The notes under the pieces: generated by a model
Seen by the model: only the letters and a program-made list of their open reading frames with translations
Told to the model about the DNA's origin: nothing
The model's database searches: none
Position numbers and translations under genes: made by a program
Shown: positions 55,985 through 59,322 of the stretch, in pieces
Numbering within the stretch: the stretch's first letter is position 1
Layout of the letters: each line of letters starts with the position of its first letter
Source: an uncultured Bacilli bacterium
Lineage (GTDB): Bacteria > Bacillota_I > Bacilli_A > RF39 > UBA660
Direction of reading: 5' to 3'
NCBI GenBank assembly: GCA_934096125.1
Contig: CAKOLB010000004.1
Span: 55,117 to 119,116, forward strand
DNA length: 64,000 nucleotides

Positions 55985-56950
55985 GTGGTAGTATTGGATT
56001 CACTTAATTATGAAGTTTTTAAAAAAATAAAGAAATATTATAATGATAATTGCAAACCTTTAATTTTTGTTGGAGAAAAATTATTATCGCAGAATAACAA
56101 ATGTAAAATGTATTTTTGTGATGTTGATTTAAATCAAGAAAAAGAAAATTATAGAAAAGTTTTTCAAGAATATTTGGCACTTTATGTTAGAAATCATGAT
56201 TTGCTAAAATATTATGATAAGATTATAAAAAGTGAAACAGAAGATGAAATTTCAGAAGCTTTAATTTATTATGGAAATGATTTGTGGAATAATACCGTAT
56301 TGATAACTACAACTACACCAGAGACTTTAGGGATATATGGAGAAGCCATTAATGATTTTTATTTAAATATTGTTAAGAATGAAAATATAATTATCACTTA
56401 TTCAGCAAAAAGGGGGTATGGTGAACGTAATATAAAAGGGGTAGATGTAGTTGCATGTACTTGGAAAAAAGATAATCTTGTACTAATATTTTCTGAGTGT
56501 AAATTTGTCGAATCAATATATAAGGCGTCGTGTGGTTTATATAATGATATAAAGGGAACTCAATATGAATTGGCACATATAAGTAAAGATTATATAAACG
56601 GATATTCTACTTATATTGTTGATAATGCTCATTCAATTTTTGCAGAGAGTAATAATTCAGATAAAATTATAGATGTTTTGGACAAATTGAATAGTAGGAT
56701 AATAAATGGAAACAAGGCGATAGATGTGTTTAATGAATTAAACATAAAAATTCAATTTAATTTCTTTGCAATTTACTGTGATAATAAATTTACACCAGAT
56801 GAAAGACAAATAATGTTTGAAAAAGTATATAATGCTTTTTATGAAAATGTAAAATTAACAGGTATTAAAAATTATGATATGGAAATTGTGTATATACCTA
56901 TTAAAAATACAAGCTCTGTGGTAAAGGAATGTATGAGACAATGGAATTGA
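55985..56950 (+). CDS. HamA-like (DUF1837-type) predicted PD-(D/E)xK nuclease, first gene of candidate Hachiman-like pair
   Basis: 321 aa. Putative nuclease motif GVDVV…(24 aa)…LIFSECKF (D…E-x-K). Translationally coupled (22-nt overlap) to a downstream SF2 helicase. Confidence 0.4.
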   Translation: MVVLDSLNYEVFKKIKKYYNDNCKPLIFVGEKLLSQNNKCKMYFCDVDLNQEKENYRKVFQEYLALYVRNHDLLKYYDKIIKSETEDEISEALIYYGNDLWNNTVLITTTTPETLGIYGEAINDFYLNIVKNENIIITYSAKRGYGERNIKGVDVVACTWKKDNLVLIFSECKFVESIYKASCGLYNDIKGTQYELAHISKDYINGYSTYIVDNAHSIFAESNNSDKIIDVLDKLNSRIINGNKAIDVFNELNIKIQFNFFAIYCDNKFTPDERQIMFEKVYNAFYENVKLTGIKNYDMEIVYIPIKNTSSVVKECMRQWN

Positions 56951-59322
56951 CACGAAATACAATTGTAAAGAAAATAAATTTATTTTCAATGGAAAGGAAT
57001 AATAAAGAATTAATAAATCTACTATGTGATATTTTAGAAAGTAAAAATTACATGGATAATTATGATCTTATTTTAATTATAATAAATATTGCCGAACTTT
57101 ATGGTTATCAAGAATTTTTTAATAATTTTGATGCAAATAGTATACCTAAATATAACGTGCATGCAATATCTAATGATATTAGAAAAAATCTATATAAAAG
57201 CAAAAAAGGTAATAATATATATTATAATTCTGGACAATTATCTTTATTAAAAGAATTATCACTATATGATAAGCTTTTTATATCAGCTCCCACGTCATTT
57301 GGTAAAACCAGTTTAGTTTTAGAGCATATAGCAATGAATAACTCAATATATAAAACTATTATTTTTTTAGCTCCAACTAATGCATTAGTAGAAGAATTGT
57401 ATCTAAAATTTTTAAAATTAAATAAAGAATGTAATTTAAATTATGATGTAATAACAATGCCAAAAAATAAAAATAATAATACAATATGGATATTAACACC
57501 AGAGAAATTTTTACTTTTGGTTGAAGAAAAAAGTATAGATTTTGATTTGATAGTTATGGATGAGGCTTATAAAATTGAAAATGAAGAATCAATTGATAGA
57601 AAAGATATTTTAAATTCTAGGTCAAGCAAATATAGGAAAGTAATGGAATATATGGCTAATTCTAATTCGAAGATTATATTTTTATCTCCATATACTTATA
57701 ATAAGGCGCCATCTATGACAAGATTCTTAAAAAAATATAGTATCAAGGATATTGACAGGAATATTAATTATGTAAAAAAAGACATAATAGATATTTATGA
57801 TAGCAAAAGTTATAAAAGTAATTTTTCCAATAGTATATTTAGTATTAAAAAAGGTGATTCTGGGATTAAAAAAGCAATGGCAGCTGTTCCCTATTTATCT
57901 GATAATACAATTATATATGTAAAATATCCAAGTGAGGCAATAAAAGTTTTAGAATTAATGCCTAATGAAAAAGCAAGTATAGATAATGAAAGATTTAAAA
58001 AATTTTTGAACCATTTAAAAGAAAATTATTTATTTGAAGACAGCAATTGGTATATTATAGATGCTCTAGAAAAGGGAATTGGCATATATGTATCACCTAT
58101 TCCTCGATATATAAAAAAAGAAATAATATATTTATTTAATAAGGGAATAATAAAAAAACTTATAGTTACAACTGCATTTGCTGAAGGAGTTAATAGTTCA
58201 GCTAAGAACATAATTATAACAAATAGAATAACAGGATCTAATAAAAAACTAACTAATTTGGATATATTGAATTTAAGTGGTAGAGCAGGCAGATTTGGTG
58301 TATATAGCAAAGGAAAAGTTTTTTCTGCAGTTGAAGAAGTAAGTGATATTTTAAGAAAATCATCTGAAAATGGAGTAATTATAAATAATCCTAATTACGA
58401 ATTAGCAAGTGATATTATACCTAGAACTGATTATGAAATCGATATGATAGATGATTATCTATTAAATGAAGAAGAAAAAAATATAAAGGAAACCACAAAA
58501 AAAAGGCAATTAAATTTTAATTTGACCAACGATGATTTAAATATAGCTTTATCAATTGCAAATGAAATAAAAATCGATGTATATTCATATTTTTTTGAAA
58601 CAATTAACAATGGAAAAATTCAAGATATAAGATTTAATAATATTAAAAATTTATTGTCTACAGAGAAAAATGATATTATAAAATCAATTACATTTATTTT
58701 TAACGAATTAAAAAATGCAGATATTCCAATAGTTTCAGATTTTGGTGATATTAATCCATTTAATAGTAAAGGTGATTTTATTTGGGGCATTTTTTACGGA
58801 ATCCACTCTTCAGGAAATATTAGAGATGTTTTGAAATCAAGAAAAGGCTTTATTTTAAAACAGTTAAGTGAAATTGAAAAAATATTAAATTTAAAACTTA
58901 AAAATTTTAATAATAAAGAAATAGAAAAAATATTACGTGAGTACGATAAAAAATGGATATACGATTATTTAACTAAAGGTGAAATTGATGATGCAAAACT
59001 ATATAATGGTGCATTTAAATTTATATCAAACATAATTGAATATAGAATACCATTTTATATTGGATTGTATATATCAGTTTTTAAAATGTTTTGTAGAAAG
59101 AATAATTTAAATTATGATTTTAATTTTGATATTGTTGAAATATCTACATCATTAGAAAATAAAAATATAGAAAAAAAGTATTCTGATATGTTGGAATTTG
59201 GCATACCATTAGATACAATCAAAAAGATAAATAAATTTAAAAATGATAATAATATTTTTGAAATATTAGATGATTATGAAAAAATTATGTTAAGTGAATA
59301 TAATTACTATTTTGATAAATAA
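56929..59322 (+). CDS. SF2 helicase (HamB-like), second gene of candidate Hachiman-like pair
   Basis: Motif I APTSFGKTS, motif II VMDEAYKIE (DEAY), motif VI LSGRAGRFG. About 340-aa C-terminal extension. 797 aa. Confidence 0.5.
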   Translation: MYETMELTRNTIVKKINLFSMERNNKELINLLCDILESKNYMDNYDLILIIINIAELYGYQEFFNNFDANSIPKYNVHAISNDIRKNLYKSKKGNNIYYNSGQLSLLKELSLYDKLFISAPTSFGKTSLVLEHIAMNNSIYKTIIFLAPTNALVEELYLKFLKLNKECNLNYDVITMPKNKNNNTIWILTPEKFLLLVEEKSIDFDLIVMDEAYKIENEESIDRKDILNSRSSKYRKVMEYMANSNSKIIFLSPYTYNKAPSMTRFLKKYSIKDIDRNINYVKKDIIDIYDSKSYKSNFSNSIFSIKKGDSGIKKAMAAVPYLSDNTIIYVKYPSEAIKVLELMPNEKASIDNERFKKFLNHLKENYLFEDSNWYIIDALEKGIGIYVSPIPRYIKKEIIYLFNKGIIKKLIVTTAFAEGVNSSAKNIIITNRITGSNKKLTNLDILNLSGRAGRFGVYSKGKVFSAVEEVSDILRKSSENGVIINNPNYELASDIIPRTDYEIDMIDDYLLNEEEKNIKETTKKRQLNFNLTNDDLNIALSIANEIKIDVYSYFFETINNGKIQDIRFNNIKNLLSTEKNDIIKSITFIFNELKNADIPIVSDFGDINPFNSKGDFIWGIFYGIHSSGNIRDVLKSRKGFILKQLSEIEKILNLKLKNFNNKEIEKILREYDKKWIYDYLTKGEIDDAKLYNGAFKFISNIIEYRIPFYIGLYISVFKMFCRKNNLNYDFNFDIVEISTSLENKNIEKKYSDMLEFGIPLDTIKKINKFKNDNNIFEILDDYEKIMLSEYNYYFDK

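Follow-up and report, generated by a model that had tools for sequence, protein, structure and literature searches.

The DNA window analyzed here, a stretch of 64,000 nucleotides (nt) from an uncultured Bacilli bacterium, contains two overlapping genes that in all likelihood encode a two-gene Hachiman type I anti-phage system of the 'I-A' architecture, in which HamA comprises the DUF1837 nuclease domain only, with its predicted catalytic residues intact. The analysis established the family membership of both proteins, their intact motifs, their folds, the conserved pairing of their genes and their setting in a mobile defence island. Judged from its sequence, the pair reads as a genuine but ordinary Hachiman, whose nuclease is a sequence-divergent member of its family; the aspects that are not routine are limited to a conserved leader hairpin and to an amidase gene interrupted by two elements. 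An initial annotation of this DNA had proposed Hachiman type I, and this interpretation was borne out by the HamB profiles, by the matches of HamA homologues to the Pfam HamA model, and by the conserved pairing. Both open reading frames (ORFs) on which it was based are indeed present, at 55985-56950 (+, 321 amino acids (aa) from GTG) and 56929-59322 (+, 797 aa from ATG), and all the motifs that it quoted were found at the expected residues of the two proteins. The region is AT-rich (22-28% GC, slightly below the remainder of the window). The genes are listed below with the starts that we consider probable.

55994-56950, + strand: hamA, DUF1837/HamA-family PD-(D/E)xK nuclease, 318 aa from TTG 55994 (longest ORF from GTG 55985, 321 aa)
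56941-59322, + strand: hamB, Ski2/Hel308-like superfamily 2 (SF2) helicase, 793 aa from ATG 56941 (longest ORF from ATG 56929, 797 aa)
56941-56950, + strand: hamA/hamB overlap, 10 nt, ATGGAATTGA

When the helicase was compared with PADLOC-DB, its 15 top families were all HamB models, the best being PDLC00191 (HamB1; E = 8.9e-71, 237 bits, residues 10-579), while Pfam returned the generic DEAD, ResIII and Helicase_C domains only. The family of this helicase is a large one: 983 of the scored candidate proteins fell within E <= 1e-10. The best sequence match in the PDB was 8zue_B, 'Anti-bacteriophage protein B' (E = 1.2e-25, plus a weak second stretch of alignment in the C-terminal domain), which is AbpB, the HamB of the Escherichia coli K-12 type I-B Hachiman (PMC11914072). 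The helicase motifs were located as follows.

57220-57243, + strand: Q-motif
57283-57309, + strand: motif I, SAPTSFGKT
within 57553-57576, + strand: motif II, DEAY
58279-58299, + strand: motif VI, GRAGRFG

The Q-motif and motifs I (SAPTSFGKT), II (D211-E212-x-Y214) and VI (GRAGRF) did not vary among 32 homologues, the most distant of which are 36% identical. Since DExY is invariant in these homologues, DEAY is the normal motif II of this HamB clade and not the oddity for which it had been taken; in the PDB alignment, AbpB carries DEFY at the same place. The two ends of the helicase, which the initial annotation had considered non-canonical, also lost that status. The AlphaFold2 model (predicted local distance difference test, pLDDT, 88.0; predicted template-modelling score, pTM, 0.88) has five N-terminal helices within residues 9-88 (9-21, 25-36, 41-55, 58-64 and 80-88, all ahead of RecA1), two RecA-like domains (~100-480) and an all-helical C-terminal region (500-797). 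The N-terminus is thus an all-helical segment of ~90 aa, which falls within the HamB profile from residue 10 on, and in the model it looks like the usual HamA-binding domain; the C-terminal part looks like a Ski2/Hel308-type module, and aligns with helicases of that type and with AbpB, 587 residues of HamB being alignable to 8zue_B in structure. With these reservations and that on DEAY resolved, the distinct nuclease-helicase pair that had been offered as an alternative is no longer needed.

The nuclease was harder to place. Window HamA alone had no match to the Pfam HamA model even at E <= 10, NCBIfam and PHROGs contained no family for it, and comparison with PDB sequences, both singly and as a 37-sequence profile, produced chance matches only (E >= 0.4). 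The PADLOC HamA1 model matched it weakly (18.6 bits, E = 2.3e-4), but the alignment joins residues 46-312 to profile positions 16-274 of 286. A word-indexed search retrieved 38 HamA homologues of 43-90% identity, nearly all of them with the PF08878 tag. The Pfam HamA model matched 17 of 37 close homologues (best E = 7.4e-10), and the homologues P0009, which is 55% identical to window HamA, and P0015 scored 31.9 and 31.6 bits, respectively, against a gathering score of 25; further out, 8 of the 10 outer clade members tested passed Pfam HamA over the whole profile, at 26-99 bits. In an exhaustive profile search of 1.84 billion representatives, just 77 HamA relatives were found at E <= 0.001, ~30 of them full-length. 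In the profile check that the initial annotation had suggested, the helicase matched HamB models directly, and the nuclease connected to Pfam HamA through its homologues and not by itself. The predicted catalytic core of HamA is given below; residue numbers of HamA follow the 321-aa version throughout.

56330-56506, + strand: predicted catalytic core, with GIYGE, KGVD and SECKF
56330-56344, + strand: GIYGE (E120)
56435-56446, + strand: KGVD (D154)
56492-56506, + strand: SECKF (E171, K173)

In alignments whose members range from window HamA to the 99-bit Pfam HamA member, E120 (GxYGE), D154 (KGxD) and K173 were invariant, and E171 was nearly so (D in one sequence). The structure predictions, which had also been suggested, agreed with this: in the HamA model, E120 lies within helix 117-130, D154 just before strand 155-161, and E171 and K173 on strand 164-175, so that the modelled active site has the canonical PD-(D/E)xK layout, and the HamB model has the N-terminal helical domain described above. 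As modelled, the folds of both window proteins agree with those of solved Hachiman proteins. The ExK residues equivalent to those of the window are essential in the HamA of ECOR31 (E138/K140) and of DEC14B (E150/K152) (PMC12278908, PMC11914072). It is to be noted that only ~45 residues precede the Pfam-equivalent region in HamA homologues. As it carries no N-terminal fusion and its active site is intact, window HamA fits subtype I-A, as defined by an unfused DUF1837 HamA with conserved PD-(D/E)xK residues (PMC11914072).

The pairing of the two genes was examined in 13 complete loci, namely the window, ten one-genome-per-species contigs (L001-L010) and two metagenome loci (L013 and L017). In all 13, a HamB homologue directly followed the HamA homologue and overlapped it by 10 nt; since adjacency and overlap recur in every complete locus, the pairing is not due to chance. 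The hosts of the ten one-genome-per-species loci are Bacilli, Oscillospiraceae, Tenericutes/Mycoplasma and Muribaculaceae metagenome-assembled genomes (MAGs), and the same hamA-then-hamB order was seen in metagenome contigs L012-L017. Overall, the pair has the sequence, domain and gene-order features by which Hachiman type I is recognized: a HamA with the DUF1837 (Pfam PF08878, HamA) domain; an SF2 (Ski2-like) helicase that matches HamB profiles and retains its ATPase/helicase motifs; the N-terminal alpha-helical (NAH/TPR-like) domain of HamB, the predicted docking site for HamA, which other Ski2 helicases lack; and hamA directly upstream of hamB in a conserved pair.

Comparison of the loci also revised both starts. 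Translation of hamA probably begins at TTG 55994, giving a product of 318 aa, because GTG 55985 falls within the Shine-Dalgarno (SD) sequence AGGTGG (55983-55988), and because the TTG corresponds in position to the start codon of L001, an ATG, and to public gene calls of 318 aa. Likewise, hamB probably starts at ATG 56941 (793 aa), which is the sole start codon common to all 13 loci (ATGGnATTnA), and a 100%-identical public HamB protein is called at 793 aa; for these two reasons, the overlap is 10 nt and not the 22 nt reported initially. An SD-like sequence, AAGGA(A/G), lies ~11 nt ahead of the hamB ATG, and the arrangement suggests translational coupling of hamA and hamB. In a separate observation, the hamB ATG was seen to overlap the codon of HamA W320, a residue invariant in the 37-sequence alignment (A1) and not in distant relatives (A3). 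One stretch of 10 nt thus encodes both the W-(N/D/S)-stop end of HamA and the M-(E/G)-L start of HamB, and may therefore be constrained by both.

The interval between the stop codon of the upstream methylase gene (55875) and hamA contains, in this order, a promoter-like box, a 16-bp hairpin, a U7 tract and the SD sequence. The relevant sites are the following.

55894-55922, + strand: promoter-like site TTGGTA-17-TATAAT, from a consensus scan, with the extended -10 TGTTATAAT at 55914-55922
55937-55978, + strand: leader hairpin and U7 tract (16-bp stem-loop at 55937-55971, dG -22.8 kcal/mol, z = -5.1)
59399-59424, + strand: downstream terminator-like hairpin, GAGAGG-loop-CCTCTT (stem-loop 59399-59416) and T-run, 77 nt past the hamB stop codon

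TGnTATAAT is conserved in L017, L001, L007 and L008; a promoter function of the box is nonetheless only putative, because promoter-like matches in such AT-rich DNA were not above those in shuffles. The hairpin and U-tract are 91% identical between the window and L001, compared with 71-74% for the flanking coding DNA and 56% for the upstream spacer, and a homologous hairpin is also present in L007 and L008, whose HamA is 50% identical. The changes in L001, L017, L007 and L008 preserve pairing, and include one U-A to A-U swap and several of U.G to U-A or C-G; with five sequences, this covariation is only suggestive. The leader region compared spans 55894-55993 of the window, ~750-836 of L001, ~8970-9053 of L017 and ~7920-7975 of L007. 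In L002, L003 and L010, an unrelated hairpin with a U-run occupies the same place, after a -10-like box and 10-35 nt ahead of the start codon; in L004-L006 a hairpin lies ahead of the -10 box, and in L013 hamA begins 24 nt after hsdS. An Rfam scan of 50500-62500 (E <= 1) found no Rfam family, the only match on the leader being a chance one to a microRNA hairpin. Going by sequence, the leader hairpin could be the terminator of the upstream methylase gene, with hamAB expressed by read-through, an attenuator in the leader, a stabilizing 5' stem-loop, or a combination of these. The initial annotation had assigned the pair terminators of its own, and two terminator-like hairpins do flank it; however, two such sites in 7.8 kb are not above the shuffled expectation (1.3 +/- 1.2), and the upstream one does not simply insulate hamAB, since it is positioned downstream of the best promoter-like box. 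Regulation of Hachiman expression has been described as unexplored (PMC13064477).

The hamAB pair is read from the sequence as cargo of a serine-recombinase element of 11.4 kb (element B) that also bears a Sau3AI-type restriction-modification (R-M) system. Its boundaries follow from an Amidase_3-LysM gene, which is split by this element and by another (element A) into three pieces.

42201-42247, 50581-50802 and 62218-63133: the three pieces of the Amidase_3-LysM gene
50803-62217: element B, the Hachiman-carrying mobile island, ~11.4 kb, ends +/- 3 nt
50920-51840, + strand: metallophosphoesterase, at the left end of element B
51903-52550, + strand: BglII-like endonuclease (Pfam, E = 1.1e-11)
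52563-52895, + strand: helix-turn-helix (HTH_36)/DnaD-like protein
53070-54467, - strand: Sau3AI-family restriction endonuclease (NF040973, E = 4.7e-149)
54637-55875, + strand: C5 cytosine methylase, paired with the Sau3AI-family enzyme
59637-60209, + strand: orf190, a 190-aa ORF that belongs to no family found
60464-62089, + strand: large serine recombinase of element B
42248-50580: element A, with Mob_Pre relaxase, AAA_13 ATPase, HTH regulators and its own large serine recombinase
42374-43633: Mob_Pre relaxase of element A
43679-45910: AAA_13-type ATPase of element A, 743 aa, with weak PADLOC PDC-S06 matches (E = 1.2e-11)

When the three pieces were joined in silico, they formed an in-frame protein of 394 aa, which has four LysM repeats and a complete Amidase_3 domain (93.9 bits; positions 1-173 of the 174 in the profile). 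The order of genes toward the right end of element B is C5 methylase, hamA, hamB, orf190 and large serine recombinase. For orf190, no family was found in Pfam, PADLOC, NCBIfam or PHROG. It always accompanies a serine recombinase of the element B type (in L012, in L017 and in the remnant in L011) and not hamAB elsewhere, and might act as a recombination directionality factor or as a regulator of the element. The BglII-like endonuclease, for which PHROGs gave no match, has no adjacent cognate methylase, the C5 enzyme being the sole methylase in element B; a copy 88% identical to it is found in L017. Megablast of the 11.8-kb island against phage and plasmid collections yielded no match, so that element B is not a phage or plasmid known from those collections, and integration at a tRNA gene can be dismissed, since the window contains none. 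Because its PDC-S06-matching ATPase adjoins a Mob_Pre relaxase and HTH regulators, element A, too, may be a defence element, and a mobilisable one. The remainder of the window is chromosomal, with MetG and HtrA, plus CwlD-like and SpoVB-like proteins that scored below their cut-offs.

Modules of hamAB and recombinase occupy the same amidase site in L012 (99.4% identical in nt), which comes from a Hadza gut metagenome, in L017 (89%, with other left-hand cargo) and also in L013-L016, where a Type I R-M system stands beside hamAB in place of the Sau3AI system. A near-identical element at 7953-10458 of L011, a mouse-gut Bacilli MAG, has lost hamAB by deletion and retains the leader hairpin, codons 1-154 of hamA with a frameshift, the final 58 codons of orf190 and a recombinase of 94% identity. 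A homologue of the metallophosphoesterase, 64-65% identical, was observed ~30 nt after hamB in two loci of Tenericutes/Mycoplasma MAGs, L007 (11244-12161) and L008 (3800-4717), where it may either be present by coincidence, as cargo, or serve Hachiman as an accessory gene in some cases.

A few observations weigh against the assignment of the pair to Hachiman type I. As judged from sequence searches, window HamA sits in a small, isolated and well-separated branch; motif II of the helicase is DEAY rather than DExH, which is not strong counter-evidence because AbpB, with DEFY, is an active ATPase; and whether the pair is expressed is made uncertain by the terminator-like hairpin immediately before hamA. 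The isolation of the HamA clade, and the position of window HamA under the Pfam threshold and at 18.6 bits in PADLOC, would also be compatible with a distinct, non-Hachiman defence pair of nuclease and helicase (e.g., PDC-M23-like) that shares with Hachiman just the generic SF2 core and the restriction-endonuclease fold, and PADLOC PDC-M23B models do match the helicase (3.3e-18). That match is confined to residues 309-471, as against 8.9e-71 over 10-579 for HamB, and PDC-M23 was accordingly rejected; we regard a pair of this kind as highly unlikely. Gabija, DISARM, Druantia and other helicase systems were rejected as well, neither protein having a PADLOC match to them; the DrmMII and DruM matches obtained with PADLOC belong to the neighbouring C5 methylase only. 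That the genes might instead encode a housekeeping or repair helicase of the Hel308/Ski2 type with an associated nuclease, unrelated to immunity, is the least credible of the explanations considered, since the helicase falls far below the cut-offs of the NCBIfam Hel308-type equivalogs (NF001308, 29.8 bits vs 1216; NF002654, 18.4 vs 887), and the pair is carried beside R-M genes in a serine-recombinase element that has integrated, is patchy across phyla and is deleted in the near-identical L011, a behaviour typical of accessory defence genes.

The remaining explanations accept a Hachiman origin and question its completeness or activity. A Hachiman-derived system might need a third component, for which orf190, the metallophosphoesterase and, by comparison with type II, a HamC-like gene would be candidates, and it is true that the family-less orf190 accompanies hamAB and recombinase in L012 and L017, and that a 64%-identical homologue of the phosphoesterase directly follows hamB in L007 and L008. 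However, orf190 is absent from L001-L010 and L013-L016 despite intact hamAB, and it tracks the recombinase and not Hachiman, because L011 keeps its tail along with the recombinase after the loss of hamAB; as for the phosphoesterase, it neighbours hamAB in just 2 of the 13 complete loci, with 5 kb between them in the window. Moreover, the best PADLOC matches are of type I (HamA1/HamB1), and the characterised type I systems require two genes only (PMC12278908, PMC11914072), which leaves very little room for an obligatory third gene. Type II Hachiman itself (HamA2-HamB2-HamC) was rejected, as the HamB2 models were weaker (best 1.3e-54) and orf190, the gene downstream, fell into none of the PADLOC, Pfam or PHROG families. 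Finally, the copy might be silenced or decaying, its intact ORFs being unexpressed owing to a strong intrinsic terminator 8 nt before the ribosome-binding site. The hairpin and U7 tract do separate the sole good promoter-like box from the SD sequence, and the related element in L011 did lose hamAB by deletion; yet both ORFs are intact with all catalytic residues kept, and the conservation of the leader layout across divergent lineages with intact genes argues for regulation, not decay, so that the chance of a silent or decaying copy is slighter still.

For the type I system that we favour, a mechanism can be transferred from the characterised E. coli systems (PMC12278908, PMC11914072, PMC10732053), by analogy with which the window HamAB would be expected to form a complex, to respond to a trigger, to degrade DNA and to protect against phage. 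HamA and HamB are probably made at a fixed stoichiometry via the conserved 10-nt overlap. HamB would bind HamA through its N-terminal helical domain and restrain the nuclease for as long as the DNA surveyed by the complex is intact. Once phage replication produces DNA ends or damage, these would load into the helicase, and ATP hydrolysis (motif I K126, motif II D211/E212) would remodel the HamAB complex, whereupon the PD-(D/E)xK site of HamA (E120, D154, E171, K173) would cut phage and host DNA indiscriminately, resulting in abortive infection.

The location of element B recalls the gene-intervening elements of spore formers, such as skin, SPbeta in spsM and gin in gerE (PMC4191935, PMC5595907, PMC5025042). 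As in those cases, a large-serine-recombinase element resides inside a coding region, and its exact excision, here in silico, restores an intact ORF; unlike them, the Amidase_3-LysM gene was hit by two independent elements, and the cargo consists of defence genes and not of a prophage. One could go further and suppose that the leader hairpin is a dedicated attenuator or 5' stabiliser that sets the level of a self-toxic nuclease-helicase, possibly with infection-induced read-through, and that the Hachiman island is a regulated gene-intervening element, whose excision, along with that of the second element, rebuilds the amidase-LysM gene. We consider this combined proposal conceivable but rather doubtful; if true, carriage of the defence island would be linked to a function in development or in the cell wall.

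The chief value of these results is for annotation. Since this HamA branch escapes the Pfam model and reaches 18.6 bits in PADLOC, Hachiman may be under-called in gut Firmicutes and related MAGs and reported as 'SF2 helicase' only; an improved HamA profile could be built from the present alignments. In relation to known systems, the window pair was compared with three from E. coli. By the definition of the subtype alone, it is akin to the type I-A Hachiman of DEC14B (PMC11914072), which has a DUF1837-only HamA with conserved PD-(D/E)xK (E150/K152) and whose HamA and HamB jointly degrade DNA (PMC11914072); I-A is the majority class, with 86% of HamA sequences (PMC11914072). Unlike that of DEC14B, window HamA belongs to a small branch of gut Firmicutes and other MAGs that the Pfam HamA model barely reaches. 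In AbpAB of E. coli K-12, the type I-B Hachiman (PDB 8ZUE; PMC11914072, PMC10732053), AbpA is a protein of 531 aa with an N-terminal Cap4 nuclease fusion and a catalytically dead DUF1837, whereas window HamA is DUF1837 only and has kept E...D...ExK; the genes overlap by 4 nt in AbpAB and 10 nt in the window, and identity in the structural alignments is low (11% for HamA, 18% for HamB). The HamB of ECOR31 HamAB (PDB 8VX9/8VXA/8VXC/8VXY; PMC12278908) is considerably larger, with 1174 aa, a DEGH motif II and an oligonucleotide-binding (OB)-like C-terminal barrel, in contrast to the 793 aa, DEAY and helical C-terminus of window HamB, to which it (8vx9_B) is a much weaker match (E = 8.8e-6, RecA2 only). 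The window locus is thus a compact natural Hachiman, in which a short, AbpB-like helicase (793 aa, DExY) is joined to an unfused HamA that is predicted to be catalytically intact; in this combination, it stands between the two E. coli systems whose structures have been characterised.

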